From assembly GCA_016699875.1 (NCBI GenBank), contig CP064989.1, positions 584,788-648,787 of the forward strand: a stretch of DNA of 64,000 nt, read 5' to 3'. This DNA comes from Candidatus Moraniibacteriota bacterium. GTDB lineage: Bacteria > Patescibacteriota > Minisyncoccia > Moranbacterales > UBA1568. The position numbers and the translations under genes are program-made. Shown here one piece after another: positions 34,143-64,000 of the stretch. Within the stretch, counting starts at the first letter, position 1. Each line of letters starts with the position of its first letter. The notes beneath the pieces were generated by a model. It searched no databases. It had not been told where the DNA came from and was given only the letters and a program-made list of their open reading frames with translations.

Positions 34143-37100
34143 ATGGAAATAAAAGATATGGAGAGTTTCGAGCTGCCAAAATACGAATCCGAGAGAATTA
34201 ATTCAAATCCCTCTAACCAAAGGGATGTTGATAGAGATTCTCCATTTGAAATGTCTTCTGATGAGGAAGAAAAGGAGATTGATGATGCGATTGTGTCCTA
34301 TGGACAGGAGCAGGAATCAAACAATAGGCAGGAAAATTACAAAATATGGAACACGGTTTTTCTGTCGGATCCTGAAGAACTCTTTTCCGAATCAGGCTTG
34401 AAAAGACTTGAAGAATATCCTTTAGGGAAGCGCTTGGGAATTATTCGATTTGCTGCGACAGATCTGCGAACTAAGCCATCAATGTGTACAAGGTATTTTT
34501 CTCGATTTCCTTTGGATCTCAATGTTATTAAGTATGAATTTTTTGATGACAGTCACCTCCAATCTTCTGAAATGTGGTCTTTGTTTACGCTTCTTGCAAA
34601 GCAAAACACATCGTCACGACAAGAAGACATGTATGGTGATTCTTTGGAGCAAGCTCGAAAAATAGCTGAACGCAGGGAGCTTGTTGACCAAGTTCTTATG
34701 CGTGAAGGCTATGAATATTCAGAGGAAGCAAAGGCGGGCTTTGGAGGAGCTATTGAGGGCTATCATCGAGCACTTTCTGATGCGCGTGACATTTCGGCGA
34801 GAAGTGACCGATATATGGATACGGCTGTCTTATTTAATGATGCGTATGTGAAATTGCCGGAGTTGAAACAAATTGATTTTCTTCGTTTTTGTCTTGCTAA
34901 ATTTCACAATGATCTGGTTTTCGAAGAGGTGTTTAATTCTGATTTTACCAAGGAAAGCGTTCAACGAGACAAATCTCGATATTTGAATATCATGAAGAGT
35001 GCAAGGTATCTGCCTCCTGGTCAGATTAGAAATGAAGCTCACTCGATGATTTTTAAAACGTATCAACCAGCAGGAGCATACAACATATCTCAAGGTGATT
35101 TTGAATACGAAATGAACACAACGGTGCTAGGGGGCGGATCATTGGAAGAATACCCTTTTCACAAATTGATTCTAGCGGTTCTTGAGAGAATAAAAGATAT
35201 AAGAGGAAATGCTGACCAGCTTGTTGACCTCGTGGTGAGCTTTTGGGAAAAAAGCAGAAACCCGATGTTTGCCAATAAAGTTGCCGAGGTGCTCTCTCAG
35301 CAGAATCCGACGCTTGCGGTGTCGCGTCTTCTTGGCGTACTTCGATCGAACGTGACAGAAAATAAGAATGCTATTGCTGCGATACTGTATCGTCTCGAAT
35401 TTGGGAATATAGGAATATCGGAAGAAGGAGTGCGGTATCTTGAACGAATATATGATTTGGGTGAACTAAACAACCCTGAGTATTTTGTTCGTCGTCTTAC
35501 GCCAAATGGAGATGTGGGCATTTTTGATGAATCGAGAAACCTGAAAAACTATTTCAATATCGGAGACATCGGTAGAGATGCATCCGAGCGCACTGCAGTT
35601 GTGAGACCCGTGGTGCACGAATTTGTATATGAAACTCTGTTTCATGGGCGTGAGAATGAATCTGAGAAAGAGCGCGAACAAAGGGAAAAATATCTTAAGG
35701 AGTTTCAGGAAAACTATTTCGGATTTTATGACGAGTTTTTTTATGAAAGAACGGGTCTGTATTTCAACAACCTTTCATTTTTTGAGCAAGGGCAATTTCT
35801 CATCTACTACAAGCATTCCTCGAAGGAAAAAAAGGAGCACCTTCTTGATTTCCTGCGTAAGTATGGTGAAAACGGCTTTCATGCGTTTCTCTCTCTTGAG
35901 CGGGGTGAAGCAGAAATGGGGGAAGCGATACTTTCCATTGGTGAGAAATTGCCAAAAGAAGCGGCGGATGCGGTATTTGCGAGGTATGCGGAGCTGGTTG
36001 ATGTTTCTCGAGAAGAGGCAAGAAGAATATTTGCTATATACAAAGATACATTTTCTTCCGAGTCTCTGACGGAAGAGCGAATAGTGGGCGCGCTGATTGC
36101 GGAAGCGAACACACTTCTGCGGGATATTGGAGAGGCAATTGATGGGTCAGATAATGCTGTTTCAACTCCTGATCTAGTGGCGCAGTTTTCGGAATCAATA
36201 AGAAGAAATAAAGAAGCTCGAGGTCATTTGCTTGAAGAATTTTTTGGTATTTCCGAATCTCTCGATGCTCTTCTGGATGAATTGAAAGTACTCTATGTTG
36301 AGAGCTCGAATCGATTCGATGATGTTAAGTCAATGGGAGATTTTCTGGCTATGAAAAGTAGCTTTGATTTGGCATGGGGACAAGAAGCTCTTCCTGAAAA
36401 TAAAGACGCAGGATTAATTCGCACGAATCTCAGTGGGAATAACTTGATACAAGAGTTCATAACTCTTGTTGAGAGAGAGTATTCATGGGCGGAAAATCTC
36501 AGAGGGGAAGGAAGTCGGACTGACGTTGATGAAGAAACACTTAAGAAGTACCTGAAAATGGCGGAATATCAAGCAAGGCGTTTCCAACCGATTACCAAGA
36601 AACTTACTGAGATACTCAAACAGCGAAAGCGGATGGAGACTGCTTTTGAGGCAGTGCTCTATGGGCGCGAGCTGGCGGCTTTGCCGAAAGAGTTTTTTGC
36701 GGGTTTCGGAAAAGCTGTCGATCGTATCCGACCAGAGCTTCCTTCATCCGAACGAGCACCGTATTTCCCGGTAGGTATTTCGAAAGAACTTCCAAAATGG
36801 GAAAGGGTATTGGCGGGAGGGGGAAAAAGTGCGAAGCCGATCGATCTCTATAATTTTCTCTTTTGGCTTAACAATCAGGGCCGAGAGATTTCTCTTCCCG
36901 TATGCGATGAGACGCAGGCGCTGAATTACGAGGTGCTTTATGGAAAAACACACGAAGAAGCTTTGGAGAGTGCGCGGGCTATCGGGAAGGTGGAACGCGA
37001 ACAGTATGAACGAATTGTTCAAACGTTTGGCTTGAGTAACATTCGCATCGTTTCCTCCAAAGAATTTTTCAAAGATACGGAGAAGAAGAATGAGAAGTTT

Positions 37101-37985
37101 GAGAAATATCTGACACTGCTTGAAAAGTTGAGCGAAACACCGGTATGGCGCTCGGCGTTCCTGGGAATGGTTGGTGAATCAGTTGCAAAAAAATCAGAAA
37201 ATGCAAATGAATCCGGAAAGATGAGAGAAGCCGTCTTGCCCTATGCTCTTGAAGAGCTTGCTCTGATTCTTTCTACGGATGGTTTGAAGCTGAGTCATCC
37301 AAATGAAGCGCGGTATGATATGATTGCGGCGGTTTTGGAAAATATGGAGGCGTATGCAACCAAGCAAGGTATTGACTTCTTTGATGTGAATGAGCATGAG
37401 AAGCTCGATCCGGTTCTGAGGGATATCCTTGAGGCGCTGGCAAATCGCATCAATACGCCGCGGGAAGAAGAGCGAAGTATGCCCGGGCAGGCATATATGG
37501 GCGCGGCAAGGAAATCGCTCCTGTCTATTCAGAAACCGACTGTTCAGGGAGTTTTGACAAAATCGGAAAAGAAAAACATCGCCTTTAATTTTTTCCCCAT
37601 GCCGGCAGATTCCCGGAGTTTCGGATGGCGGAGCGCTGGGAAAAAGGGCGAGGAAGAGCGGCTGGTATTCAAGGAGCCGTACAGTACTTATTTCCCTTCG
37701 AGTGAAGCGGATATCCTCCTCGAGGATCAAGTGGTAGCCCTGCCGCAAGGGGTGCTCTCGGGAAAGATTCTGACGCTTTCGTCAGAAAAACAACGAGAAT
37801 ATGCGGAGAATATTCTGAAGCCACTTCTCCTTCACTATTTCAAATCACTTGAATCCGCGCCGCAAGAATATTTTCAATCTCTTGGTGAAACGCGCGCATC
37901 ACTTCTCATGCGTTGCCAAAAATCAGAGACGCTTAGCGATGTTTTGCGATTCATCCAGAAATATATCGTTGCACCATCAGTGTAG
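34143..37985 (+). CDS. Giant (1280-aa) highly charged, predicted alpha-helical hypothetical protein
   Basis: Strong SD 'GGAGGTGA' 6 nt before ATG 34143. The track start at 33996 would read through the terminator. No TM, no recognisable catalytic motif, and low GC (about 40%). Confidence 0.6.
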   Translation: MEIKDMESFELPKYESERINSNPSNQRDVDRDSPFEMSSDEEEKEIDDAIVSYGQEQESNNRQENYKIWNTVFLSDPEELFSESGLKRLEEYPLGKRLGIIRFAATDLRTKPSMCTRYFSRFPLDLNVIKYEFFDDSHLQSSEMWSLFTLLAKQNTSSRQEDMYGDSLEQARKIAERRELVDQVLMREGYEYSEEAKAGFGGAIEGYHRALSDARDISARSDRYMDTAVLFNDAYVKLPELKQIDFLRFCLAKFHNDLVFEEVFNSDFTKESVQRDKSRYLNIMKSARYLPPGQIRNEAHSMIFKTYQPAGAYNISQGDFEYEMNTTVLGGGSLEEYPFHKLILAVLERIKDIRGNADQLVDLVVSFWEKSRNPMFANKVAEVLSQQNPTLAVSRLLGVLRSNVTENKNAIAAILYRLEFGNIGISEEGVRYLERIYDLGELNNPEYFVRRLTPNGDVGIFDESRNLKNYFNIGDIGRDASERTAVVRPVVHEFVYETLFHGRENESEKEREQREKYLKEFQENYFGFYDEFFYERTGLYFNNLSFFEQGQFLIYYKHSSKEKKEHLLDFLRKYGENGFHAFLSLERGEAEMGEAILSIGEKLPKEAADAVFARYAELVDVSREEARRIFAIYKDTFSSESLTEERIVGALIAEANTLLRDIGEAIDGSDNAVSTPDLVAQFSESIRRNKEARGHLLEEFFGISESLDALLDELKVLYVESSNRFDDVKSMGDFLAMKSSFDLAWGQEALPENKDAGLIRTNLSGNNLIQEFITLVEREYSWAENLRGEGSRTDVDEETLKKYLKMAEYQARRFQPITKKLTEILKQRKRMETAFEAVLYGRELAALPKEFFAGFGKAVDRIRPELPSSERAPYFPVGISKELPKWERVLAGGGKSAKPIDLYNFLFWLNNQGREISLPVCDETQALNYEVLYGKTHEEALESARAIGKVEREQYERIVQTFGLSNIRIVSSKEFFKDTEKKNEKFEKYLTLLEKLSETPVWRSAFLGMVGESVAKKSENANESGKMREAVLPYALEELALILSTDGLKLSHPNEARYDMIAAVLENMEAYATKQGIDFFDVNEHEKLDPVLRDILEALANRINTPREEERSMPGQAYMGAARKSLLSIQKPTVQGVLTKSEKKNIAFNFFPMPADSRSFGWRSAGKKGEEERLVFKEPYSTYFPSSEADILLEDQVVALPQGVLSGKILTLSSEKQREYAENILKPLLLHYFKSLESAPQEYFQSLGETRASLLMRCQKSETLSDVLRFIQKYIVAPSV

Positions 37986-43036: not shown

Positions 43037-43648
43037 TTAAGCGATACTTGCTTTTACGAGGAAGTCGCGCACGGTTTCGTCTGGTGTTTCGAAACCCGGG
43101 AGGTAAGAAACGGATTCGGAATAATCGATATCGTCGAAATATGCAAGCTGTTCGCGGAGGATTTTTTCGTTGAATTCGTTTCCAAACATTTCCCGAGTTT
43201 TTATCATGATATCGGTGAGAGAGGAATGATCTCTCAAGATGAAGTAAAGATCGACGTAGTCTTTCCATTTGGCACGGCGACCCAGGGCGAAGAGTTTCAT
43301 GGCGCCGAGCGTTTGGAGATTTGGCATGCGAAGTGTTGACTCGAACGATTCGGAAAAGTCGAGCGCATACGGATAACGAAGAAATGTAATCCGAACACCG
43401 CCAACAAGCGCTTCATACTGATCGAGTTCGTCCACAAAAACGCGTTCGATGGGAGCGAATGACCGAAGTTTTGATGTGATAGCAGTGTTGTCGAACGGTG
43501 ATATGGAAAACAAATCGAAGTCGATCGATCGCCGATGTCCGATAATGTAGGCAATTGCCGTTCCTCCAACCAAACCGAATTTTGAAGAAAAAACGGAGAG
43601 TGATGGTAGGATATTTCGCTGGGTAGCTTCAAGGATTTCGGGGTGCAT
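43037..43648 (-). CDS. AbiEii/AbiGii-family (DUF1814) nucleotidyltransferase toxin
   Basis: 'KFGLVGGTAIAYIIGHRRSIDFDLFS' matches the AbiEii NTase core (GGTAL...R.S.DIDF). The track ORF extends to 43876, but Met 43648 gives the typical ~200-aa size and a 20-nt overlap with the upstream small ORF. Confidence 0.55.
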   Translation of the reverse strand: MHPEILEATQRNILPSLSVFSSKFGLVGGTAIAYIIGHRRSIDFDLFSISPFDNTAITSKLRSFAPIERVFVDELDQYEALVGGVRITFLRYPYALDFSESFESTLRMPNLQTLGAMKLFALGRRAKWKDYVDLYFILRDHSSLTDIMIKTREMFGNEFNEKILREQLAYFDDIDYSESVSYLPGFETPDETVRDFLVKASIA

Positions 43649-43895
43649 GAGTGTCGAAGTAGAGAGTGAAGAAATGCCGGGTCTTCGAGGAGTAGTTTGA
43701 TCGAGGGCTGGAAACTTGTTCGCGGAAGACTCGTGCGGCGGATTCCATACCGACAAGCCGGAGCATTTCCTGGACATCATCCCAGTTTCCGGAGGTGAGT
43801 GTTGCTTCGATAATAGCTTCGTCGGACAGGTGAGTCGGGTCGTCGGTCCACCAGACAAAATACGGGCGATTCGCAATGAAGTTTTGGAGGCTCAT
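43629..43895 (-). CDS. Putative cognate antitoxin/partner of the AbiEii-like NTase (88 aa)
   Basis: Small upstream ORF overlapping the toxin start by 20 nt. No direct motif match. Confidence 0.3.
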   Translation of the reverse strand: MSLQNFIANRPYFVWWTDDPTHLSDEAIIEATLTSGNWDDVQEMLRLVGMESAARVFREQVSSPRSNYSSKTRHFFTLYFDTHAPRNP

Positions 43896-48155: not shown

Positions 48156-50120
48156 TCAAGGAGCTAGAATGAATTGATCTTTCATTCTTTCCCATATCTT
48201 AAGGCAATAATATTTCGGAGTTTTTATATCTTCAGGATTAAGGAATCCACTTCGAAGAAGAAATGTAAGGGCGTTCAAGTTTGCCCCACCAATGAAAACA
48301 TATTTTTCCAACCCATGTTTTTTTAACTCCCGAAAAAGTCTTACTTGTTCGAGATATACGGTGTCCTTGCTTTTGGCAAGAAATCCTTTCTGTGACGAAA
48401 GGTCTGATCCATCTTTGAAGAGACGCTGGGATCTATTAATGGATAGCCTAAGGTTTTTCCGCATTTCTTTTTTGAAATCTTCATCGGAAAGTGTCCCAGC
48501 TGATTTTTCTTGTCGAGGGATCTTCATGGCGCTCTCATAGAATTCTTTGACGCAATCAAGGTAATTTCCCCCGTCAATTTTTTTCTGCATAGCGCGAATA
48601 TAGTGCGGATGCGGCGGAGAGTTAAAGCCGAATGCTTCTTTGGAGACAATGTCTTGGTTGTTCATGGCTCCGCATTCGGCAAAAACTAATGACCGTCCAC
48701 TCCCGAGTTTTTTGAAAAGTCGAAGTGGTATTTTCGATCTATTTTCGTATTGAAGAACATGACCTTCTATTTCATGGGCAAGTGCTATTGATATAGCAGC
48801 TACAACAGATTTTCTACTGGTTCCGCACTGAATAATTTTTTTCTTTCCATTTACTGACATTGATGTGATCTCTTTTCGAGTAATAAATTGCCACTTATTA
48901 TCCGGAGCTGGACCGATTCTGTCCGGATCGTATTCCGATGCCGGTTGGTTGCTTAAAAGGTCGTAGGAACGAAGAGTTTCCTCGGCGAGTTCTCGCAAAT
49001 TCTCTTCAGAGATAGCAGTTTCGTCCCCTATCTTTTCCGGGTCGAGATTTTTTTTCACGATATTTTCTCGTTTACGGATTTTTCCTTCGTAGGATTCTTC
49101 TTCAATCTCCGAAGCAAATTGACTAAGTTCTTCCCCGACTTGTTGTCTCCATCCCGATGAAGTTTCTTCGTGCACTACGCCATGTATGAACTTATCGTAA
49201 CGCGAGAGGTTTGTTTCCGGCTGTTTCCGTATGAGTTCAAGTGCTGATTTTTCCGCTTCAGTTAGGTTTTCATGCCCAAGGAGTTCCGCTTTACGTTCAA
49301 TGTCAAAAATCGAGGAGGTGCTTTCCGCAATCATCTCATTGACTCTTGATTGGTAAAGCTGCAAAATATTGAGAAGAGTTTCCTGCTTAGGCGAGGAGGG
49401 GTACTTTTTTAGGGAGTCTTTCTGCCGCTTTATCTTTTCCTTGAATTGACGCAGTTTTAAAATTTTTTCGACGTTTTTTTCTGTGTCGAGGTGAATCTTG
49501 ACGGGATCGGGCATGAGTACGTTGTTGATTCTGATGGTTCCGTTGTGATCGGCAGTGTCAATGAGCGATGTAAATAGATTTGTGTCGCTGTAGTCTTGAG
49601 ATCGTCCAGCAATACCCATTCGTTCTTTTGATGAGAGGTGGGCGATGATCGGTGTGGCCTCATAGAGAAATCTTCGTATTGACTCTTGTGTGTTTCCAGT
49701 GGATTCTAGACTAATACCGGTTATTTTCTCAAAGTCTTTGCGACCCGCTTCAGTGAGAAGATATCCACTATAAAAAGTTGAAGATCTTGGTGATATATCT
49801 GATATACTTTCCAATATATCGCCGAGCAAGTCTTCCATGTTCTTTATTTCTTCGCGCTCTTCGAAAGAAAGTTGGATCTTTTCTCCTCTGCCACTATCAA
49901 AATCGGCAAGCGCCCGAATCTTTTCTTCGAGATGATCTGACGGCCGTTCCGGGTAAAATCCCCGTGGATCTCTTTTGTCATCTTGATTCTTCGGGAGGAG
50001 TTCCAATGAATTCATAGAAAATTTTTGTTTTTCGATTGGGCGCTTTGGATGGCTGCATTTATTTACTGGCTCGCTTTTCAAGAGATTCGAGAGTTTTTTG
50101 TATAAACAGTTCTGATCCAA
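48156..50120 (-). CDS. HExxH zincin-like metallopeptidase, DUF1704/MATCAP-like (gluzincin arrangement)
   Basis: 'IALAHEIEGHVLQ', with 'FAECGAMN' about 25 residues downstream supplying a third-ligand Glu. Long charged N-terminal region. An alternative start at Met 50015 would remove the overlap with the upstream gene. Confidence 0.5.
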   Translation of the reverse strand: MDQNCLYKKLSNLLKSEPVNKCSHPKRPIEKQKFSMNSLELLPKNQDDKRDPRGFYPERPSDHLEEKIRALADFDSGRGEKIQLSFEEREEIKNMEDLLGDILESISDISPRSSTFYSGYLLTEAGRKDFEKITGISLESTGNTQESIRRFLYEATPIIAHLSSKERMGIAGRSQDYSDTNLFTSLIDTADHNGTIRINNVLMPDPVKIHLDTEKNVEKILKLRQFKEKIKRQKDSLKKYPSSPKQETLLNILQLYQSRVNEMIAESTSSIFDIERKAELLGHENLTEAEKSALELIRKQPETNLSRYDKFIHGVVHEETSSGWRQQVGEELSQFASEIEEESYEGKIRKRENIVKKNLDPEKIGDETAISEENLRELAEETLRSYDLLSNQPASEYDPDRIGPAPDNKWQFITRKEITSMSVNGKKKIIQCGTSRKSVVAAISIALAHEIEGHVLQYENRSKIPLRLFKKLGSGRSLVFAECGAMNNQDIVSKEAFGFNSPPHPHYIRAMQKKIDGGNYLDCVKEFYESAMKIPRQEKSAGTLSDEDFKKEMRKNLRLSINRSQRLFKDGSDLSSQKGFLAKSKDTVYLEQVRLFRELKKHGLEKYVFIGGANLNALTFLLRSGFLNPEDIKTPKYYCLKIWERMKDQFILAP

Positions 50121-51003
50121 TCATAGCTTCTGTTGGAAAACCTATTTGATCGTTTAGTTCGAAAACAAAGGGCGTTGTCTTATTTTGAATCCCGAAATCT
50201 ATTGAATAGAGAGGGAAGTCATATTTTTTATCGAGAAGGGATTGAATTTCCCCTGTTGCTGTTTGTATAAATTGAGGAATGGCATCTAGTGGAATTTCTC
50301 GTATGGATCCGCCTTGCGCGACGTTGGCAAGGAGTGAGCCGGGTTTTGGCTCTCTTACGTGACTCAGGACAACCTCTCCATCTACAATAACAATGCGGAG
50401 ATCGTGGTGGGATTTGGCTATTTTTGGAATTCCGAGAGAGGTGTCGACAAACCCTTGAAGGGTGTATTCGTTGCCGTCTTCTATGTGAAATTGCGCTATT
50501 TTGCTTGGCGTGTCGATAAGAATGCCTTTCCCTTGCATGCCTCGGGCTGGCTTGAGGACAATCTTTGAATCTCTATTGCATTTCTTGATGCAAGTGGAAA
50601 GATCTCCTTGTGTGCGAATGCAGAAGCTTTCCGGCATGTATTTCCCCAGAATCTCTTTTTGGGCATTCTTGTCATTACAAAGCTGTTTAAATTCAATGCA
50701 ATTTAACACTTTGCTCCCGATTTCTTTCGGAGGGAAACCCAATCCTCCACTTCTATCGAAGATTGCGTCAGCACGTACTTCCCGTTGGTAAGGTTCGAAA
50801 TGGTCAGAATTATATACAAAAGTGTTTCTAAACAGTAGCGAGTGCCTGTGGTTTTCTTCTCCGCTCGCAATGAACATGTTAAATCCACGTAGAACTCCTT
50901 GCTGAAAAAACTTATGGTATACAGATCTCTTTGTTCCGAATGTTTCAAATGGATCGCGGGAGAGAGGGCGTTTTCGAAAATACATGACTATGTTCTTTCG
51001 CAT
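50059..51003 (-). CDS. ATP-grasp superfamily ligase
   Basis: 'KIVLKPARGMQGKGILI', 'DLRIVIVDGEVVLSHVR', 'SLLANVAQGGSIREI', 'FVFELNDQIGFP' follow the ATP-grasp fold order. Confidence 0.6.
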   Translation of the reverse strand: MRKNIVMYFRKRPLSRDPFETFGTKRSVYHKFFQQGVLRGFNMFIASGEENHRHSLLFRNTFVYNSDHFEPYQREVRADAIFDRSGGLGFPPKEIGSKVLNCIEFKQLCNDKNAQKEILGKYMPESFCIRTQGDLSTCIKKCNRDSKIVLKPARGMQGKGILIDTPSKIAQFHIEDGNEYTLQGFVDTSLGIPKIAKSHHDLRIVIVDGEVVLSHVREPKPGSLLANVAQGGSIREIPLDAIPQFIQTATGEIQSLLDKKYDFPLYSIDFGIQNKTTPFVFELNDQIGFPTEAMIGSELFIQKTLESLEKRASK

Positions 51004-51899
51004 AGGGCGAGATATTCAGAAAGTTTTTCAATTTCGTTTGAGATTTCTTCATCAAGTGTGAACTCCGGACAGCTATTTACCTCGAATATTATAGGAGAGT
51101 CTTCTTTGTTGATGACGACATCAACTCCTGCAACTTCTATATTGGTTGTCCTTGCCGCAAGAATAGCCGCTTCTTTTGCAACGAGTTCAACATGTGCTGG
51201 GTCTATAAATTCTTCGGTAGCGCCCAAGTGCACATTGTTTCTAAACTCTCGTCCGCGGTCTCGAACTTTTTTCTCGGCAACGGCGACAGTATTCCCTAAA
51301 ACAAGAAGTCTGTACTCAAATGTGTTATCTATGAATTCTTGAAGAAATAACATTCTTTTTTCCGGTAGTGCTTGTCTTTTATGGAGAATATCTTTTAAAT
51401 CCTCCCGGTTCTTTGCAAGAAAAACACCTAATCCGTGAGAAGTGTTCGATTCTTTTATGACCACGGGAAATCCAAGGTATTTGGAAGCATTTTCGATATG
51501 CGCATCTGTGTATGAGGGCGAGAAGTATGTCCTCGGGATTGGGACTTCAGCTTCCGCAAGGTTAAGCATTTGTACTATTTTGGCCGAATCGGAAGCGTCT
51601 TTGGTTTGCTTATGAAAAGGATCCAGAAATCGTATGGATGACTTTTCGCATGTCCGTGCCAATAGGTGTGCGGCGCATTTTTGTCGGCCAACTTTTCGCG
51701 GATAAATGGTTGACCATGTGGAAATGGGAAGGTTTTCTATGAGAACATTGACACTTCCTGGTTCTATAAAGAATTCCGTCTGTTCGAAATTTGATATCTG
51801 GTAGTCAATATGTAACTTTTCTAACTGCTTTTCAATATGTGTCAAGAAATCCCTCGATTTTGTGCTTGGGGATTCTTTGTCTAGTAGGAGGAGCAGCAT
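50988..51899 (-). CDS. RimK-like ATP-grasp ligase (alpha-L-glutamate-ligase family)
   Basis: 'LGFPVVIKESNTSHGLGVFLA', 'FLQEFIDNTFEYRLLVLGNTVAVAEKK', 'FRNNVHLGATEE', 'VAGVDVVINKEDSPIIFEVNSCPEF'. Confidence 0.7.
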   Translation of the reverse strand: MLLLLLDKESPSTKSRDFLTHIEKQLEKLHIDYQISNFEQTEFFIEPGSVNVLIENLPISTWSTIYPRKVGRQKCAAHLLARTCEKSSIRFLDPFHKQTKDASDSAKIVQMLNLAEAEVPIPRTYFSPSYTDAHIENASKYLGFPVVIKESNTSHGLGVFLAKNREDLKDILHKRQALPEKRMLFLQEFIDNTFEYRLLVLGNTVAVAEKKVRDRGREFRNNVHLGATEEFIDPAHVELVAKEAAILAARTTNIEVAGVDVVINKEDSPIIFEVNSCPEFTLDEEISNEIEKLSEYLALCERT

Positions 51900-51918
51900 A
51901 AATATTTGAGTTTATTTT

Positions 51919-53334
51919 TTATTTGCTGGCGTCTATGAGGAATTTCCGCAAGCTCTTTCTTCCAATAATAGCAGGATATTCAAGATGTGATCTTTCGACA
52001 ACACTTGCTTTTGAAGGGACGTCGATTCCATCAAGAATGAATGAAAGCGATATCTTCGGCCTCATGGTGAATCCGTTTGAAGCATACACAAAGGTAATAC
52101 CAGCGAGGTCCGGATGTACGCTTTTGTACTTCTTATCATATTCGTCGGAGAGGGCTCGAAGCTCAGATCTGTCTGCTGTATTGGGAGTGGGAATTGTTCT
52201 GAAAAACTCCAGCACATCTCCAAATCCCAGCTCTCGCGCGAGTTCGGTGTCGATGGAGGTGGAGTCGGCGCCGGTATCGATTTTGGCTTCTACTTCTATT
52301 TCCTTGCCGTTTCTCCCGATGAGCTTCACCTTTTCCACTGTGCCGATGATTTTCTTTCCGGAGATTTCTTCAAGTTCTTCTTCGATTTCACCGCCGAAGA
52401 GATCCATGCCCATGCGAATGCCTTTTTCAGCTGTCTTTATGGCGAGTCCGGCGACGCGTTCGAGACGGCCTTTGAGTCCGTCGAGATTGGCTACTTGGAT
52501 GGAGAGTCCCGGGCGGGCATTCAGTTCGAGGAAGACCGGACCGCGATCGCGATCAATCGCGATGTCGGCGCCCAAGAAGCCGAGCCCGGAGACTTGCTGC
52601 GCCTCGACGGCCATTTTGAGGATATCTTTCCAGTAGGGGATGCGGATACCGGAGAGGACGAGTCGGGTGCCGGGAATGTTTTCGATGATTCGATTCTTGC
52701 CCCAGACAGCGGTCGTGGTAGTGCCGGAAGCAAGGTCGATGCCGACGCCGATCGCGCCCTGCTGGAGATTGGCGCGCCCGCCGGATTCTTTTGTAGGAAG
52801 GCGGAGCATCGCCATGACGGGCACTTTGTTGTATACGACGATACGGATATCGGGGACGCCTTTGAATGTGTAGGGCTTGAAAAGTTTGAGGAGTTTGAGG
52901 CGCTCTTCGAAGAATGCGGAGTCGGGAATATTGGCAAGCGAGAATGAGCCGTCGAGAATATTCCTGATGTGTGTTTTGAGATCTTCGACCGTGACAAGTG
53001 ATCCGTCGGCTTTGATCCAGGTGTGCTCCGCATCTTTCTTTTTCCCGTATACAACCAAGATGCCTTCGCCACCGAAACCGTGATTGGGTTTGAGAGCGAA
53101 GCTTCCCGGGAGCAAAGACCAGTCGAAACTTTCCAAATCTTGCGCGGTCTTGACGCGAGCAAGAAGGGCGGGGACGGGAAGCTCGTTTTTTTTCAGAAGG
53201 CGTTTGCAGGCCATCTTGTCATCGGCAAGGCGCTTCGAACGGCGCCGATTGTACGGGCGCAGGTAGTCGAGGTTTCGCGCATTCATTCCAAGAATATTGC
53301 GACTCTTTTTCCAGGCTTCGAAAACATGAAACAT
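51919..53334 (-). CDS. Fusion protein: N-terminal RimK-like ATP-grasp ligase + C-terminal retropepsin-like domain ('putative ATP-dependent Zn protease', RimB-like)
   Basis: ATP-grasp 'SFALKPNHGFGGEGILVV', 'IRIVVYNKVPVMAMLR', 'ANLQQGAIGVGID', 'FLGADIAIDRDRGPVFLELNARPG'. C-terminal 'VEAKIDTGADSTSID' carries the aspartyl-protease DTGA motif. Start chosen at Met 53334, 11 nt after the upstream gene's stop. Confidence 0.65.
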   Translation of the reverse strand: MFHVFEAWKKSRNILGMNARNLDYLRPYNRRRSKRLADDKMACKRLLKKNELPVPALLARVKTAQDLESFDWSLLPGSFALKPNHGFGGEGILVVYGKKKDAEHTWIKADGSLVTVEDLKTHIRNILDGSFSLANIPDSAFFEERLKLLKLFKPYTFKGVPDIRIVVYNKVPVMAMLRLPTKESGGRANLQQGAIGVGIDLASGTTTTAVWGKNRIIENIPGTRLVLSGIRIPYWKDILKMAVEAQQVSGLGFLGADIAIDRDRGPVFLELNARPGLSIQVANLDGLKGRLERVAGLAIKTAEKGIRMGMDLFGGEIEEELEEISGKKIIGTVEKVKLIGRNGKEIEVEAKIDTGADSTSIDTELARELGFGDVLEFFRTIPTPNTADRSELRALSDEYDKKYKSVHPDLAGITFVYASNGFTMRPKISLSFILDGIDVPSKASVVERSHLEYPAIIGRKSLRKFLIDASK

Positions 53335-53345
53335 AGACGACAGTG

Positions 53346-54014
53346 CTACGATTTCAACAATTTCGAGAAACGCAGGTATTCCGAAAGGCGCAATCCTCTC
53401 CAGCGACCGAGGAATATATTTACGGGAATCGTGAGAAGAACGATCCACGGTGAAAGGAGAAGGATGCTGGCGAGTGCTTGAGAGCGCGCGAGGAAATACC
53501 CGACGAGCGAGATAAAGAGTGTCTCTGTCGCCAGAACAAGCGCGGTTTTGTCTCCCTTCTCGATTTGCGTGGCGACAAATTTCTCAACTAAGGTGATCAT
53601 GATAAGGAGCGGGAAAATGGAAACCGAAGCGAGTCCGGTTCGGTGGAGGTATCCACCGGCGACGAGTATGCCCAAAATGACGATCGCGACAATGGTAAGC
53701 GTGATGGCAACGCGCGGAAGATAGAGAAGGCGGAGTCGGCGGAGAACGAGTCGCGAGAGCATGCCGATGAGAATGATGCTTACAAAGATGGCGATGCCAT
53801 ATTTGAGACCTCCCGGATCAAAGGCAAGAAAAGCGAATGTAACAATCGATGGCGTGTAGATGCCAAATGCCTTGATGCCGATCACTTGCCGAAAAAAAGC
53901 GACGAGCGTGACAACGAGCGGAAACATGAGGATGTACCGGATCGTGTCGATGGGCACGCCCTGATCGACAAAATTAAGAAAGAGCGGATGAAGAGACATA
54001 GGATGGAAAATCAA
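53346..54014 (-). CDS. Seven-TM membrane protein, first gene of the ATP-grasp/peptidase operon
   Basis: 222 aa with seven clear hydrophobic helices. It resembles the 7-TM modules reported next to RimK-like ligases, but that is a recollection that cannot be verified here. Confidence 0.5.
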   Translation of the reverse strand: MIFHPMSLHPLFLNFVDQGVPIDTIRYILMFPLVVTLVAFFRQVIGIKAFGIYTPSIVTFAFLAFDPGGLKYGIAIFVSIILIGMLSRLVLRRLRLLYLPRVAITLTIVAIVILGILVAGGYLHRTGLASVSIFPLLIMITLVEKFVATQIEKGDKTALVLATETLFISLVGYFLARSQALASILLLSPWIVLLTIPVNIFLGRWRGLRLSEYLRFSKLLKS

Positions 54015-57717: not shown

Positions 57718-58731
57718 TTAAAAAAGTTTGTTTTCATGTCCTTCAGGGGGAGTTGCCCCGAGATGGGAATATGCCTCCGGGGTGACGATGCGGCCTCTCG
57801 GGGTGCGGGCGAGGAGTCCGAGTTGGATCAAGAACGGTTCATAGACATCTTCGATGGTTTCGCGTTCTTCGCTGGTTGCGGCGGCAATGGTTTGGACGCC
57901 GACGGGGCCGCCCGAGAATTTATCGATCATGGTGGAGAGAATGTGCCGGTCGGTCGGTTCGAGTCCGAGGTGGTCTATCTCAAGAAGGGTGAGCGCTTCG
58001 TGCGCGGTGTCACGAGTGATGATTTCGACGTCTCGCGTTTGCGCGTAGTCGCGGACGCGCTTCAGGAGGCGGTTGGCGACGCGCGGCGTGCGCCGGCTCG
58101 CTTGGGCGATGCGTCGAGCGCCGGCGGGGTCGATGCCGATATTGAGTATGCGGCTCGAGCGCGTGAGTATGCGGGCGATTTCTTCTTCGGTATAAAATTC
58201 GAGACGATGCACGGATCCGAATCGGTTTCGAAGCGGATTGGAAATGGACCCGAGTCGGGTTGTAGCGCCGATCAGGGTGAATTTGGGAAGATCGAGTTGG
58301 ATGGTGCGCGCCGATGGGCCTTTGCCGATAATGATGTCGAGCTTGTAGTCTTCCATTGCCGGGTAGAGCACTTCTTCGATGAGCTTGTTGAGGCGATGGA
58401 TTTCGTCGATGAAGAGCACGTCGCCGTTCTCAAGATTGGTGAGGATAGAGCCCAAGTCGCCGACGCGTTCGATAGCGGGGCCGCTCGTCACTTTTATGCC
58501 GACACCCATCTCCTTGGCTATGATATGAGAGAGTGTCGTTTTGCCGAGGCCTGCCGGACCGTAGAAGAGTACGTGCTCGACAGGGTCGCCGCGCTTGCGT
58601 GCCGCCTCGATGAAGATGCCGAGGTTTCGTTTGATCTTCTCTTGCCCGATGTACTCGCCGAACCCTTGCGGGCGAAGCGTTGTGTCGAGGGCGGGATCGT
58701 CGGACGTAGCGGTCGATGAAATGAGGGTCAT
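57718..58731 (-). CDS. ruvB: Holliday-junction branch-migration helicase RuvB
   Basis: '[24 protein letters not shown]' (Walker A), '[10 protein letters not shown]', '[10 protein letters not shown]'; winged-helix C-terminus. The track start at 58821 is probably extended. Confidence 0.9.
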
Positions 58732-58843
58732 AGCGTGTGTTTCACGCCAGTATACCCCCGGTTGACAGAAAATAAAAGCTATGCTACCATTTCCAGTCGC
58801 GCTGTTTTTGCTCATTGACAATTGAAAACGCCCATAAGGGGCT

Positions 58844-59129: not shown

Positions 59130-59684
59130 GTGATGAATAGTAAGGAAATTCCAGTGTGGACATTGCTACAAGGACAGGTTTTGTTGAAAACATTCGGAGT
59201 CATTTCCAAGTTTGGCGATGATGATACCGTATGTACAGTGATGGATGACCCGAGGTTTTGCACTTTCCGTGTTCCTCATGAGATAATGTTGGGACATTAC
59301 AATATTCTGGTTTTTGTTGGGCTTATTCCTCAAGGAGGTGTAAGTAATAAGGTAATCCGTTTGGATCAGGAAGTCGCCCCTCGCGCATATGCATATTCAC
59401 CTTTTATAAAAGGCGGTATTTCGACGAGAAAAGGATCTGCAGCATTGTTGGTATCGAATGGAGCACCATTTGATACGACGGTGACCGCTTTTTCTTCTTC
59501 TGAGGAAAGGTTTGTTCAAGGGGAACAGCTTGTGCAGGTTGTTTATCGATCGGTACTTGCTTTTCCGAAAAGAGATGGGAGTGGAACGATTATAACGTTT
59601 CGATATCCAAGTCTTGAACCACAGTATCGATTTGTTCGGTCGCTTCCAAACGAATTGATTATCTGTTCGGCAAGCAGCTACTAG
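59130..59684 (+). CDS. Hypothetical protein, paralog A of a local two-copy family
   Basis: 184 aa; shares 'IPVWTLLQGQ', 'GLIPQGG...VIRLD' and 'EPQYRFVRSLPNELI' with the downstream copy. Confidence 0.45.
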   Translation: MMNSKEIPVWTLLQGQVLLKTFGVISKFGDDDTVCTVMDDPRFCTFRVPHEIMLGHYNILVFVGLIPQGGVSNKVIRLDQEVAPRAYAYSPFIKGGISTRKGSAALLVSNGAPFDTTVTAFSSSEERFVQGEQLVQVVYRSVLAFPKRDGSGTIITFRYPSLEPQYRFVRSLPNELIICSASSY

Positions 59685-59707
59685 CGAGAAATCCGGAGGA
59701 AAGTAAG

Positions 59708-59938
59708 ATGGCAGATCTTTTTTGGGTTTTAGGAGGTGCTCAGGAGATGAGTGAGTCCGTTCGAGCTTGGGAAATTGTACGGAAATCAGACGAGTACGCT
59801 CAAGAGAAGGGCTTTCTCTTCATGAAGAACATGGCAGGTCGCAAGGGGAAGGGTGGCGGCAGGCAGAAAAGTTATAACGGTCGTGGCGTACACGTGCGCA
59901 AGGGGTACGTGGGTCGCCGGAAGATGATGAAAAAGTAG
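59708..59938 (+). CDS. Small basic protein (76 aa, Gly/Arg/Lys-rich C-terminus)
   Basis: ORF between the two paralogs; 'GRKGKGGGRQKSYNGRGVHVRKGYVGRRK'. Confidence 0.35.
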   Translation: MADLFWVLGGAQEMSESVRAWEIVRKSDEYAQEKGFLFMKNMAGRKGKGGGRQKSYNGRGVHVRKGYVGRRKMMKK

Positions 59939-59962
59939 CTTTCAAAAACCGGAGGTAGAAAA

Positions 59963-60527
59963 ATGAGCGAGATTAAGAATATCCCAGCATGGACATTGTT
60001 TCATGGCGAAAATCTGATGGAACGAGAGGCTGTTGTTGATGGGGATCGCGTGCGATTCCTTATCGAGAATAGTGCTTGTTGGAATACCTGTAACTGTCCA
60101 AGAGTTATTGTCCCACAAGGAGAGACACTTGCAGGTCTCCATCTTTTCCTCTGCACGGGGTTCATCCCTCAATATGGCGCAGCAGCTAACGTGCGGCGGT
60201 TTGATCTCTCCAAATACTGCTCTGATCCGGCAGAATCAGGACATGAGAGATTCCGTCACGGAGAACTCTTTACTAGGATTAACTCACGTAACTGCGACAG
60301 GTCTTCCATACGCTGCTGGGGGAGATTTAAAGCTCTCTCCTGACATTAGCGGTACTGGCTTTCGTGATTTTTGGTCTTGTCGTCAACGAGCTTTTCAGAA
60401 AGTCTCTATCTGTGCGCTCGGAATTCCGAATGGTATACGGGTAACGATGTTAGTCTTTGACGAGCATCTTAATCCGGAATACCGAACGATTCGGAGTGCC
60501 CCAGAGGGGTTGTTTATGGAAAAATAG
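59963..60527 (+). pseudogene. Paralog B of the 59130 gene, interrupted by a +1/-1 frameshift near 60195-60215
   Basis: The N-terminal half in the 59963 frame ('IPAWTLFHGE...GFIPQYGAAANVRRFD') and the C-terminal half in the 60033 frame ('GGLISPNTALI...NPEYRTIRSAPEGLF') each align with consecutive parts of paralog A. Confidence 0.5.
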
Positions 60528-60612: not shown

Positions 60613-63600
60613 TTACAGATGCACCACGCGGAGGACTTCTTCGAGGGAGGTTTCGCCATCGAGGGCCCGTAAGACGCCGTCCATGAGCATGGTGATCATG
60701 CCGTTTCGTATGGCGGCTTCTTCGAGTTCGAGATTGAGAGCGCCGTTCATAATGAGGTGTTGGATGTCCTTGTTGATCTCGAGGACCTCGCTTAAAACGA
60801 GTCGTTTTTTGTATCCGGTGTTGCTGCACTTTTCGCATCCGCCGGCGATCCATTGCTCGTTTGGGATTTCTGGAATGGCGACGCCGGACTTTTCATTGAA
60901 CAATCGCAATACTTTTTCGACGGTCTCGCGAAGTGCGCCGTCGAGTGGTGCGCGCTTCTTGCAGGTGCAGAGCTTGCGGACGAGGCGTTGTGCCATGTAA
61001 GTGCCGCCCGCATTTACGATATCGTCAGGGCGAACGCCCATCGAGATGAGGCGCGGTATGCTTCCGGCGGCATTGTTGGTGTGGAGGGTGGCGATGACGA
61101 GATGGCCCGTGAGTGCCGCCTGGAAGGCGATTTCCGCAGTTTCGTCGTCGCGGATTTCGCCGATCATGACGATGTTGGGATTCTGCCGGAGAAGTGAGCG
61201 GAGTGCGGATGAGAACGTGTATCCGCCTTCTTCGTTCACCTGTGTCTGCAGTATTCCGGAGAGCTGGTATTCGATCGGATCTTCGACGGTGATGATTTTT
61301 GTCTCCGGCGTTTTGACAAAATCAATAAGACTGTACAGTGTCGTCGTCTTGCCACTTCCGGTGGGACCGGTGTTCAAAATGATGCCGGTCGGTTTCTTCA
61401 TGCCGTCCAAAAGATGATGGAGCGTCTGCTCGCGGACGCCGATTGTTTTGATGTCGAGCGCGACGGCGCCGCGGTTCAAGAGTCGCATTACGACGGTCTC
61501 GCCAAAGCCTCCCAGGATGATGGAGACGCGGATGTCGAACTTCTGCTCACTTGTTCCGGCAAGCGGTGATTCGGTCTTGACCATGAAGCGGCTGTCGCGC
61601 ACGCCGGCGCGTTCTTCGGTCTTGAGTCCGGAGAGGAGTTTGATATCTCCCAAAATAGACGGGTATTCGTTCATCGGGAGTGTCGCAACCGTCTGGAGGA
61701 CGCCGTCGATACGAAAACGAATGTCGACGGAATTCTCCTGCGGTTCGATGTGGATGTCGTTGGCGCCGGTCAAGAGGGCTCCGGCGAATACGTACTTGAG
61801 CGCTTCGCGTTGCTCGGCGTTTTCGATGAGTTTTCCGAATCGGTCGAAAGAAACAAGGCTTTCTCGTGTCTCTTTGAGAATGGTGTCGCCGACCGGGAAG
61901 GCTCGGGCGAGTGTTTGTGACATGAGTTGGTCGTAGAGGTCTTCGAGGAATTCGGTTTGTCCGGTGACGCGCCAGACTTCATCGAGTGATGTGTCGCCGC
62001 TCACGGCTTTCAATATGCCATCTTGCGCCATAGTGACCATGCCTTCCTCGAGCGCCTCTTTCATGATGTCGTTTTCGCTCGTGAGCGAGACGATTTTTTC
62101 AGTGATCACATCGGTGAGCGTGAGGACTTCAAAAATGCCGATCCGCCCTTTGTATCCGGTTCCGTTGCAGTGGAGGCAGCCCTTTGGCCGCCAGAGTTTT
62201 TGTATGTCCTTGGGTATGTCTATCTTCGCTTTCGGTGAAATCAGGGAGAGAATTTCTTTGAGAGAATTCGAGGTCTCTTCGGCGGGCTCATATGATTCTT
62301 TGCACTCCGAGCAGAGGATACGGACGAGCCGCTGAGCGATAAAAGCGTTTACGGCGTTCGGAATGGTGTTGGGGCGTACGCCCATCTCAACGAGACGCGC
62401 GACGCTGCCGGCGGCATTGTTGGTGTGCAGTGTCGAGAGGACGAGATGTCCGGTGAGTCCGGCATTTACGGCAATGTTGGCGGTTTCGTCATCGCGAATT
62501 TCGCCGACGAGGATGATATCCGGGTCTTGGCGGACGATGGAGCGAAGACCCATGGCAAAGGTGTAGTTTCGACTCTTCGATACCTGTGTCTGCGTGATAT
62601 TCGGAATTTCGTATTCGATCGGATCTTCGATAGTGATGATTTTCGTCTCGGGAGTATTGAGTTTGCGGAGAATGGCGTAGAGCGTCGTTGTTTTTCCGCT
62701 TCCAGTCGGGCCGGTGTTCAAGACAATGCCGGTCGGTTTTTGAAAAGCGCGCTCGACCTGCTCATAGGCGAGTCCGCGGAGTCCGAGTGTCGAAATATCT
62801 TGGAGAGCGGTTTCTTGATCGAGGAGTCGCATCACGAGGCTCTCGCCGAAGTTTCCTGGAATGCTCGAGACGCGAATGTCTATTTTCCTCGAGTCGAGAT
62901 TGAGCGAGAAATGACCGTCTTGAGATTTATCGCGGATATTCAGCTTCATTTTCCCGAGCATTTTGACGCGCGAAAGGAGAAGAGGATAAATGCTGGCCGG
63001 GAACCGCCCGATGTCTTGAAGAACTCCGTCGATGCGGTAGCGGAGCCGGATTTCGTTTTGCTCTTCCGGTTCGAGATGGATATCGCTCGAACGGAGCTTG
63101 ATCGCGCCGACCATGATGGTCTCGAGAACCTGTGTCGTGGGGATCTCTAAAATTCGGTTCTTGAGTGCAATGAGATTGCCGAATTCTTGCTCGAATGCCG
63201 CGAGGTCGCTGTCGGAAAGATTGACTTTCAGATGATCGAGATAGTCGAGAAAGACCGGCTTTTTGTAAGCATTCCAGGCATGTTCGAGCGAAGGTCGTGA
63301 GGCGACATAGAGCTTCGCGATGAGTCCTTCGCGATCTTCGAGTGCGCGTATATAATCGAGCGCTTTTTGGCGGTTCGGATCAAGAATGGCAATGCGGATT
63401 TCCTTGCCTCTTTTCTGAAAGAGAGAAATGCCGAGCGATGTCGCATCTCCTTCGGGAATGAGCGCGACGCGCTCTGTTTCAATGGGGAAGATGTGCAAGT
63501 CGACATAGGGAAGGCGCGCGCTATGAGCGAGCGCCGCTGCCTCGCCTTCTTCGGAAGAGCGTTTCAGCGTGGTGAGAATCTTGGCGGTTTGTTGTTCGCG

Positions 63601-63651
63601 TTCGGAATGGAAGTTTGCTGTCGAAGCATTGCGAGGGAGCACCTTGACCAT
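60613..63651 (-). CDS. Tandem-fused double GspE/PilB-type secretion ATPase (two complete N-domain + ATPase units in one 1012-aa polypeptide)
   Basis: Unit 1: 'NTGPTGSGKTTTLYAIL', 'ILVGEIRDDETA', 'STLHTNNAAGS', C4 'CSECKESYEP...CLHCNGTG'. Unit 2: 'NTGPTGSGKTTTLYSLI', 'VMIGEIRDDETA', 'ATLHTNNAAGS', C4 'CTCKKRAPLD...CEKCSNTG'. The two units also share long near-identical nucleotide stretches. Confidence 0.85.
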   Translation of the reverse strand: MVKVLPRNASTANFHSEREQQTAKILTTLKRSSEEGEAAALAHSARLPYVDLHIFPIETERVALIPEGDATSLGISLFQKRGKEIRIAILDPNRQKALDYIRALEDREGLIAKLYVASRPSLEHAWNAYKKPVFLDYLDHLKVNLSDSDLAAFEQEFGNLIALKNRILEIPTTQVLETIMVGAIKLRSSDIHLEPEEQNEIRLRYRIDGVLQDIGRFPASIYPLLLSRVKMLGKMKLNIRDKSQDGHFSLNLDSRKIDIRVSSIPGNFGESLVMRLLDQETALQDISTLGLRGLAYEQVERAFQKPTGIVLNTGPTGSGKTTTLYAILRKLNTPETKIITIEDPIEYEIPNITQTQVSKSRNYTFAMGLRSIVRQDPDIILVGEIRDDETANIAVNAGLTGHLVLSTLHTNNAAGSVARLVEMGVRPNTIPNAVNAFIAQRLVRILCSECKESYEPAEETSNSLKEILSLISPKAKIDIPKDIQKLWRPKGCLHCNGTGYKGRIGIFEVLTLTDVITEKIVSLTSENDIMKEALEEGMVTMAQDGILKAVSGDTSLDEVWRVTGQTEFLEDLYDQLMSQTLARAFPVGDTILKETRESLVSFDRFGKLIENAEQREALKYVFAGALLTGANDIHIEPQENSVDIRFRIDGVLQTVATLPMNEYPSILGDIKLLSGLKTEERAGVRDSRFMVKTESPLAGTSEQKFDIRVSIILGGFGETVVMRLLNRGAVALDIKTIGVREQTLHHLLDGMKKPTGIILNTGPTGSGKTTTLYSLIDFVKTPETKIITVEDPIEYQLSGILQTQVNEEGGYTFSSALRSLLRQNPNIVMIGEIRDDETAEIAFQAALTGHLVIATLHTNNAAGSIPRLISMGVRPDDIVNAGGTYMAQRLVRKLCTCKKRAPLDGALRETVEKVLRLFNEKSGVAIPEIPNEQWIAGGCEKCSNTGYKKRLVLSEVLEINKDIQHLIMNGALNLELEEAAIRNGMITMLMDGVLRALDGETSLEEVLRVVHL

Positions 63652-63704: not shown

Positions 63705-63899
63705 TTATCGCGTCGGCGGCAGTGTTTCCAGCATAAGAGTTTCCGCCTCTTCGAGCGATGCGGTCGGGAGCGAAATATCGAGGGTGTTGTTGCGAAGTTT
63801 GGACTCGGGGAAATGTTCTGCGATTTCGGAAAGAAGCGTGTTGGTGTGGCACTTGAGGAGTGCCCGTGTTTTTGACGGCGATTCCGCAGAGAGAATCAT
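63705..63899 (-). CDS. Small hypothetical ORF upstream of the double GspE
   Basis: 64-aa ORF whose ATG overlaps (ATGA) the stop of a minus-strand gene that enters from the window edge. Confidence 0.25.
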   Translation of the reverse strand: MILSAESPSKTRALLKCHTNTLLSEIAEHFPESKLRNNTLDISLPTASLEEAETLMLETLPPTR

Positions 63900-64000
63900 G
63901 AAGGTTGACCCGACAGACGAGTGGTGGCGGATCTTTTCAAGAATAAGCGGGAGGTCTTCAAGGCGTGACCGGGATTGGACGATATCGTCCGGCGTGACGA
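63897..64000 (-). CDS. 3' end of an unidentified minus-strand gene (partial)
   Basis: Open frame '...SSRRTISSNPGHALKTSRLFLKRSATTRLSGQPS*' running in from beyond position 64000. Confidence 0.3.

Follow-up and report, generated by a model that had tools for sequence, protein, structure and literature searches.

What does it mean when two complete secretion-ATPase units are found on a single polypeptide chain, and what would such a chain assemble into? The question is raised by a gene in a stretch of 64,000 nucleotides (nt) from a Candidatus Moraniibacteriota bacterium (assembly GCA_016699875.1, contig CP064989.1, positions 584,788 to 648,787 of the forward strand), which is called the window below. 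The gene is an open reading frame (ORF) at 60613–63651 on the minus strand, and encodes a PilB/GspE-type ATPase of 1012 amino acids (aa) in which the ATPase core occurs twice. The reading that we favor, and consider probable, is that this tandem ATPase represents, in Moranbacteria, an orphan motor of the PilB/GspE class that occurs across Patescibacteria, that it was duplicated in situ, and that three of its chains would form a six-unit ring driving the assembly of a type IV filament. The chemistry of the protein is ordinary; it is the architecture that is unusual.

The ORF is uninterrupted, and the Pfam family T2SSE (PF00437) matches its product in two stretches (E = 3e-220). The start is supported by the N-terminal residues MVKV, which are kept across 111 orthologs. 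The layout runs N1 domain, linker, N2 domain (N2D), C-terminal domain (CTD), linker, N2D and CTD, with the parts placed as follows, all on the minus strand.

60613–63651, minus strand: tandem two-unit PilB/GspE-type ATPase, whole ORF, 1012 aa plus stop (ORF listing; two T2SSE matches)
63262–63516, minus strand: N1 domain (MshEN / T2SSE_N), aa 46–130, in unit 1 only (Pfam PF05157, E = 1.5e-6, aa 46–129)
63133–63261, minus strand: N1–N2 linker of unit 1, aa 131–173 (AlphaFold2 helices at 134–144 and 147–169; mean column identity 0.71)
62782–63132, minus strand: N2D of unit 1, aa 174–290 (residues mapping to R271, R286 and R257 of G. metallireducens PilB)
61963–62781, minus strand: CTD (ATPase core) of unit 1, aa 291–563 (functional residues invariant in 111 sequences)
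61807–61962, minus strand: inter-unit linker, aa 564–615 (mean column identity 0.63; about 53 aa in orthologs)
61438–61806, minus strand: N2D of unit 2, aa 616–738 (R688, R708 and R723 all invariant)
60616–61437, minus strand: CTD (ATPase core) of unit 2, aa 739–1012 (residues invariant in 111 sequences, except E837)

A preliminary description of this DNA had recognized two complete ATPase units in one ORF, which the uninterrupted frame and the two T2SSE matches bear out. It had also given each half an N-terminal domain of its own, and this has to be amended: the N1 domain is found in the first half only, and the second half follows a linker of about 50 aa with an N2D. This inter-unit linker is a conserved segment rather than a floppy spacer. 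Among its 52 residues, G564, F568, L569, Y573, L576, M577 and R583 are invariant in the ortholog alignment, and in the AlphaFold2 model the per-residue confidence (pLDDT) in this region is below 50 at 566–582 and high at 584–628. When it was compared with the N1–N2 linker (aa 122–171) by profile–profile alignment with hhalign, the two were co-linear and the match was not significant (E = 0.047, probability 1%). The N1 domain, despite its Pfam MshEN match, lacks the 24-residue cyclic di-GMP motif of the MshE type, RLGxx(L/V/I)(L/V/I)xxG(L/V/I)(L/V/I)xxxxLxxxLxxQ, as defined in PMC5013675. It reads QTAKILTTLKRS... where the aligned PilB of G. metallireducens carries the RLGxx... motif; at the motif site itself, the G. 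metallireducens protein has RLGSILIKNGLISEPDLTSFLSKQ and the tandem ATPase has QTAKILTTLKRSSEEGEAAALAHS.

Could the two halves be the product of a recent event, or of the assembly process? The preliminary description had pointed to extended near-identical nucleotide runs between them, had taken these as the mark of a recent tandem duplication, and had allowed for an assembly error. The runs turn out to be short. The best DNA match between the halves is 72.5% over 371 nt, in the catalytic core, and the longest exact runs, two in number, are of 20 nt. The proteins are 46% identical over 396 residues (aa 174–562 against aa 616–1009). Nei–Gojobori counts over 431 aligned codons of unit 1 and unit 2 give a proportion of synonymous differences (pS) of 0.69, equivalent to a synonymous divergence (dS) of about 1.9, and a proportion of nonsynonymous differences (pN) of 0.38; synonymous sites between the units are near saturation. 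Of the 189 residues that the halves share, 100 are written with the same codon in both, where the codon usage of the gene itself would lead one to expect 89. Since this codon sharing is at chance level, the likeness of the halves in DNA is no more than what conserved motifs in the protein and a biased codon usage would produce.

A recent duplication, or an artefact in the form of a mis-joined duplicate or a missed stop, can thus appeal to the catalytic core, with its 371-nt match and two exact runs, but is extremely improbable in view of the divergence just described and of the relatives. An identical protein recurs in an independent Logan assembly (run SRR11674035). Among the best 120 clusters at 90% identity, drawn from NCBI, JGI, ENA and Logan, 118 are 1000–1031 aa long and have the same architecture, at identities that run from 89% down to 55%; the other two are a 911-aa partial sequence (P0010) and a three-unit protein (P0014). 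An assembly error is excluded by this recurrence of the architecture.

The units also keep apart in a tree, each grouping with its own orthologs. Within Moranbacteria, the orthologs of unit 1 are 64–90% identical to unit 1 of the window and those of unit 2 are 58–88% identical to its unit 2, and the identity between unit 1 and unit 2 is always about 47% across orthologs. In a neighbor-joining tree of 116 units, the second units form one clade (94 of 100 bootstrap replicates) with no single-unit gene inside. This clade spans metagenome-assembled genomes (MAGs) of Moranbacteria, Parcubacteria and Falkowbacteria, and units 2 and 3 of the three-unit protein fall into it as well. Strict monophyly over all first and all second units failed at first, and was resolved once the partial sequences and three separately duplicated or younger proteins had been removed. 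Taken together, the dS of about 1.9, the 46% identity and the clade of second units point to one duplication that predates this group of lineages; the sequences indicate that the fusion is real, old and lineage-conserved.

As to its distribution, an exhaustive search shows that about 14 of the best 150 representatives at 50% identity are two-unit proteins (978–1018 aa, 40–51% identity), and these are followed by ordinary PilBs of about 560 aa. The name given to the distant two-unit clusters is Candidatus Paceibacterota, and among species-representative genomes at least 18 MAGs carry a two-unit gene, under the labels Moraniibacteriota, Parcubacteria group, Falkowbacteria and Patescibacteria. 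The remark in the preliminary description that covalently dimeric ATPases of this kind are uncommon is correct for bacteria overall, but within this lineage the tandem form is the norm.

If the duplication is old, have both copies remained functional? To answer this, 18 functional residues, 13 of which are named by McCallum et al. (PMC5424180), were mapped from G. metallireducens PilB, whose numbering was calibrated on alignments with 5TSG and 6OLJ (chain offset 20). The Walker A sequence GPTGSGK begins at aa 314 in unit 1 and at aa 762 in unit 2, and the active-site elements of the two units correspond as listed, with the PilB residue given first where one applies.

Walker A span: unit 1, 314–322; unit 2, 762–770
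Walker A T327: unit 1, T316; unit 2, T764
Walker A Lys: unit 1, K320; unit 2, K768
Asp box: unit 1, E342 and E346; unit 2, E790 and E794 (E357 of PilB corresponds to E346 and E794)
N2D R271: unit 1, R260; unit 2, R708
N2D R286: unit 1, R275; unit 2, R723
N2D R257: unit 1, H247; unit 2, R688
Walker B Glu: unit 1, E384; unit 2, E832
Pore loop D398 and E400: unit 1, D387 and E389; unit 2, D835 and E837
His box T411, H413 and H420: unit 1, T400, H402 and H409; unit 2, T848, H850 and H857
R455: unit 1, R444; unit 2, R892
Zn cysteines: unit 1, 447/450/492/495 (CxxC...CxxC); unit 2, 895/897/939/942 (CxC...CxxC)

Across the 111 orthologs, 17 of the 18 mapped residues are conserved in both units, 16 of them fully invariant and one (E837 of unit 2) kept in 106 sequences. 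The N2D arginines R260 and R275 of unit 1 and R688, R708 and R723 of unit 2 are present in 111 of 111, and all four cysteines of each unit are invariant as well, the binding of Zn being a prediction from sequence. The exception among the 18 is the first of two asymmetries between the units. The position of R257 holds His in 95 of the 111 first units and Arg in every second unit; since nearly all single-unit relatives have Arg here, the His is a feature of the Moranbacteria-type unit 1. The second asymmetry is in the first Cys pair, which in unit 2 is CxC, not CxxC. The claim in the preliminary description that both halves keep all catalytic elements holds for Walker A, the Asp box, the Walker B Glu, the His box and the four cysteines, and needs correction in the spacing of this second Zn motif. 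The mean column identities of the two units are close to each other (0.77 and 0.78 for the N2Ds of units 1 and 2; 0.82 and 0.77 for the CTDs). The alignments thus indicate that both units, with complete active sites, have been kept under strong purifying selection. A degenerate second unit with a regulatory role is ruled out, as the catalytic residues of unit 2 are all invariant.

A small feature of the DNA in this region may be noted separately. The codons for KPTGI(I/V)LNTGP ahead of each Walker A form, on the antisense strand, a 10-bp hairpin followed by a T-rich stretch (61365–61390 and 62709–62734, plus strand). A scan for promoters and terminators gave nothing useful, its top "terminators" being these two hairpins in the Walker A coding segments. 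They lie inside the ORF, and most probably arise as a side effect of the ACCGG/CCGGT codons.

Both units belong clearly to the GspE/PilB branch of the PilT/VirB11-like ATPases. The closest structures to either are those of PilB, PilF and GspE, at 1e-87 to 1e-100, with PilT at about 1e-30; against the PilT/PilU model TIGR01420 (cutoff 319.1 bits), unit 1 scores 181 and unit 2 scores 154, both below the cutoff. A fusion of a PilB with a PilT is ruled out, as both units are of the assembly type by structure matches and by NCBIfam scores. The PilB of type IVa pili (G. metallireducens, 5TSG/5TSH/6OLJ; M. xanthus, 3JC8) and the PilF of T. thermophilus (5IT5, 5OIU, 6F8L) have the same N1, N2D and CTD layout as unit 1, and they share with both units the Walker A, the Asp box, the atypical Walker B Glu, the His box, the N2D arginines, the pore-loop D/E and the tetracysteine Zn module (E-values of 1e-87 to 1e-99). 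The tandem ATPase differs from them in having two units per chain and one N1 for two ATPase cores, and from PilB also in the His at the R257 position of unit 1, in the CxC of unit 2 and in the absence of neighboring pilC, pilM, pilT or pilin genes. PilF does multiply parts of its chain, but these are the N-terminal GSPII domains and not the ATPase core. GspE/PulE of the type II secretion system (T2SS; V. cholerae 1P9R, 4KSR/4KSS; 4PHT) agrees in domain order and motifs, and 4PHT is the best PDB match of unit 1 (4.4e-100); the tandem arrangement sets our protein apart, and no GspL-type partner or other T2SS gene was found in the window. Patescibacteria are thought to be without an outer membrane.

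Where did the two-unit gene come from? The answer lies in its genomic slot, for which the following neighbors are needed.

63705–64000, minus strand: DHH-family phosphoesterase, 3' end, cut by the window edge (blastx 66% over 77 aa to the DHH protein of a relative, L002, E = 1e-29)
59130–60527, plus strand: variable spacer between the ATPase and RuvB with lineage-specific small ORFs (no Pfam matches; found only in contig L001 of the same organism)
57718–58821, minus strand: RuvB, downstream neighbor of the ATPase slot (ORF translation; RuvB Pfam domains in orthologous loci; synteny)

The DHH gene lies upstream in the same direction and ends 53 nt before the ATPase start; its product is weakly NrnA-like, and its adjacency to the ATPase is kept in relatives. 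The order TsaE–(DHH)–ATPase–RuvB–(bPH_2)–YebC–RuvC is kept in relatives at 85% and 58% identity. Elsewhere in Patescibacteria the same order is seen in at least about 40 loci, drawn from many lineages; the slot there holds, as in most lineages, a single-unit PilB-like gene, 40–53% identical to the tandem ATPase. This orphan PilB paralog has one unit, not two, and groups with unit 1 in the unit tree. The shared synteny around the tandem and the single-unit genes shows that the tandem gene arose by in-situ duplication of this conserved orphan paralog. The copying took place in frame, in an ancestor of Moranbacteria and the related Parcubacteria and Falkowbacteria, and the segment would have comprised the N1–N2 linker, the N2D and the CTD.

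Two remarks on the slot loci belong here. Several MAGs from "binchicken" co-assemblies (L010, L011, L016, L019, L022, L023 and others), labeled Bdellovibrionales, Gammaproteobacteria or Saccharibacteria, have the typical Patescibacteria synteny; their taxon labels look unreliable and were not trusted. The small ORFs of the spacer are not part of the ATPase system. Those at 59130–59684 and 59963–60343 (plus strand) have no family matches and are paralogs of each other (28% identical, E = 4e-9), and the second runs on in another frame (60033–60527, plus strand) with a C-terminus resembling the first, so that it looks like a frameshifted copy.

There are further variations on the theme among the relatives. 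The three-unit protein (P0014; L086:8001–12383, JGI 3300022698, contig Ga0248662_100121) has 1460 aa and three complete units, and occupies the same TsaE–DHH slot. Its middle unit is unit-2-like through the N2D and unit-1-like from about alignment column 221, and is the product expected of unequal crossing-over between unit 2 and unit 1 in the conserved ATPase core; the crossover stretch is where the two are most alike in DNA. As its units are 46–58% identical to each other, it is not an assembler's repeat expansion. In the opposite direction, two single-unit genes (L023 and L026) nest in the unit 1 clade, are unit-1-like along their whole length and share His247, which suggests a secondary loss of unit 2. 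Three proteins, P0129 (L089), P0131 and P0139 (L087), fall outside the clade of second units and look like separate or younger events. P0129 (L089:3181–6213) is a tandem that adjoins TsaE and has units 74% identical, and in P0131, another tandem, the units are 55% identical; these more-alike units could be due to a younger re-duplication or to gene conversion between units. P0139 (L087:8001–11144, GCA_964384625.1; 1047 aa) carries a PilC-like T2SSF domain (aa ~118–203) ahead of two T2SSE units, at the place that an N1 would occupy. It comes from a non-Patescibacteria genome, where its neighbors include an ECF sigma/anti-sigma pair, MoxR and BatA, and is an independent fusion of a platform domain with a double motor. 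The distance between units is about 44–54 aa in the multi-unit T2SSE relatives and a near-constant 53 aa or so in the orthologs.

We now turn to what the two-unit chain may build. The working form in the PilB family is a ring of six units, with each N2D packed against the CTD of the adjacent unit (PMC5424180). In the PulE6:PulF3 model, which has a 6:3 ratio of ATPase to platform protein, each N2D contacts one of the alternating Cyto1 and Cyto2 domains of the trimeric platform, through the N2D α2 helix and the α2–β4 loop (PMC10790770). The most likely assembly of the tandem ATPase is a six-unit ring of three chains, in which units 1 and 2 would alternate and only three N1 domains would be present. 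The preliminary description had suggested a pseudo-hexamer of three chains, and as a model this is reasonable. The constant spacing of about 53 aa and the three-unit ortholog (2 × 3 = 3 × 2 = 6) fit a six-unit ring made of three, or two, chains. In a C2 rotary cycle, in which opposite subunits fire together, each firing pair of the alternating ring would consist of one unit 1 and one unit 2; both units would then have to stay competent, which would explain why neither has decayed. The N2Ds of the two units differ most at the α2 and α2–β4 surface, and each may have specialized for one of the platform domains. Most likely the motor would drive a type IV filament, either a pilus or a competence pseudopilus, whose other parts would be encoded elsewhere in the genome.

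A number of observations weigh against this proposal, and they concern the filament as well as the ring. As far as the filament is concerned, neither unit on its own reaches the cutoff of an assembly-ATPase equivalog: unit 1 and unit 2 score 481.4 and 390.4 bits against GspE (TIGR02533, cutoff 630.25), 457.9 and 381.2 against PilB (TIGR02538, cutoff 675.65), and 247.4 and 221.6 against ComGA (NF041000, cutoff 300). The whole protein does pass the GspE and PilB cutoffs, with 862 and 831 bits, because the two unit scores add up, a general trap for the automated naming of tandem proteins. No pilC, pilM, pilN/O, pilT, pilD or pilin gene was found within 10 kb on either side of the orthologous loci, and there is no pilin, PilC, PilD, PilM or PilT, nor any pilin-type signal peptide, anywhere in the 64-kb window, in agreement with the preliminary description, which had seen no pilin, PilC or prepilin peptidase genes nearby. 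With both units below the cutoffs and no pilus genes nearby, the protein is not to be classed as an equivalog of type IVa PilB, of T2SS GspE or of ComGA; its assignment to pilus assembly would follow from family resemblance only.

One may then ask whether the orphan ATPase serves some other process, such as DNA uptake or translocation, or an unknown secretion or regulatory role. In addition to the unit scores, such a role would find support in the slot order itself, kept across Patescibacteria from TsaE and DHH through RuvB and YebC to RuvC with no pilin-like ORF and no second T2SSE gene in about 60 slot loci among the matches listed. The classic operon-type loci with pilB, pilT and pilin in the same genome scan are, again among the matches listed, only 33–36% identical to the tandem ATPase. 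We nevertheless regard a role away from the pilus as unlikely. The order of the genes may reflect common descent and have no functional meaning, the ATPase and ruvB being 1.8 kb apart in the window with opposite-strand small ORFs between them. The pore-loop D/E, the N2D arginines, the His box and the Zn module that PilB uses on its platform protein are all invariant, and among solved structures the assembly ATPases of pili and the T2SS come closest. Finally, Patescibacteria often have their type IV pilus genes spread over the genome, those of TM7x being found in four loci (PMC11623550).

As far as the ring is concerned, the AlphaFold2 monomer models do not fix the relative placement of the units, the linker being of low confidence and the predicted template modeling score (pTM) being 0.55 for the full length and 0.59 for CTD-1 with the linker and N2D-2; the three-unit variant, for its part, has been seen on one contig only. 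The evidence from the N2D surface also has its limits. The α2 and loop region was specified beforehand as aa 219–243 from the AlphaFold2 secondary structure, and the naming of the N2D elements is our own mapping. Among 21 type II divergent sites (conserved within units, different between them), four fall in this region, on 4 of its 25 positions (Fisher p = 0.038), a marginal value that would lose its significance once corrected for the nine regions inspected. The α2–β4 loop has the lowest identity between units 1 and 2 (18%) together with within-unit conservation of 0.86 (unit 1) and 0.75 (unit 2). The divergence of the N2D surface would fit a specialization for different platform domains, and is suggestive only.

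The low pTM values leave room for a different geometry, with six chains in two stacked hexameric rings, or with some other stoichiometry in place of a planar ring of three chains. Many tandem P-loop ATPases do stack rings, as tandem AAA+ or KaiC-type proteins do, and a linker of about 50 aa is long enough for either geometry. Even so, we find such a geometry quite improbable, on the strength of several observations: no stacked ring is found among the PilT/VirB11-like structures matched, the three-unit ortholog would imply a triple stack while it fits a six-unit ring from two chains, and both N2Ds keep the surface and the arginines expected of ring members. The N2D face that is modeled on the platform protein (PMC5424180, PMC10790770) would be harder to reconcile with stacking.

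Returning to the alternating ring of three chains, a bolder version can be put forward, though we hold it to be rather doubtful. The ring would be a natural counterpart of the proposed 6:3 complex, with its N2Ds split between the two platform domains and its His247 and Arg688 sites non-equivalent; or else the orphan motor would drive a machine other than a classical pilus. Either way, if true, this would be a naturally position-addressable PilB motor. Several units of a ring ATPase have been joined in one polypeptide by engineering, in the single-chain ClpX pseudohexamers, which allow position-specific mutation. Compared with these, the tandem ATPase occurs in nature, has an age close to that of an order-level lineage, and is of the PilT/VirB11-like type, not AAA+.

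The significance of such a motor comes from a debate over how the subunits of PilB, GspE and PilT hexamers are coordinated, in C2, C3 or C6 cycles, and how they are coupled to the platform protein (PMC5424180, PMC6858323, PMC10790770). Alternate positions in a homo-hexamer cannot be mutated separately; a natural covalent dimer with two slightly different intact sites, and with a trimer variant, allows just that. Inactivation of one unit at a time would reveal any difference between alternate sites, and would put to the test the pairing of three chains with three platform proteins. The tandem gene also draws attention to the orphan PilB paralog that these tiny symbiotic bacteria keep, throughout Patescibacteria, at one fixed place in the genome. 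The databases name these proteins "GspE/PulE family" or "type II/IV secretion system protein", and no description of a tandem, fused or duplicated PilB/GspE/T2SSE ATPase, in the Candidate Phyla Radiation or elsewhere, was found in the searchable full-text literature, where the matches to "tandem" concerned MshEN motifs or pilin genes.

Elsewhere the window contains the region of the replication origin, genes for the cell envelope and a conjugation-like cluster; an Rfam scan of the whole 64 kb gave no matches. The neighborhood of the replication origin (26275–33420) contains Jag/R3H (26275–26763), YidC (26902–27687), DnaA (28582–30141), a DUF4153 membrane protein (30238–32151) and DnaN (32215–33420). 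The conjugation or type IV secretion-like cluster (6622–20484, plus strand) includes a VirB4/TraG-type P-loop ATPase (11201–13039), a protein with T4SS_pilin and NlpC/P60 domains (17284–18591), and large ORFs without family matches at 6622–8673, 8686–9930 and 14431–17259. Two more large ORFs have no Pfam match at E ≤ 0.001, one of 1329 aa at 33996–37985 (plus strand) and one of 654 aa at 48156–50120 (minus strand). An AbiEii-type nucleotidyltransferase toxin, of the type IV toxin–antitoxin or abortive infection family, is encoded at 43037–43876 (minus strand). At 50059–54014 (minus strand), three consecutive ATP-grasp genes (RimK/ATPgrasp_ST-like) follow a 7TM_transglut membrane protein, and this block is syntenic in the relatives L002 and L004, at 85% and 58% identity.

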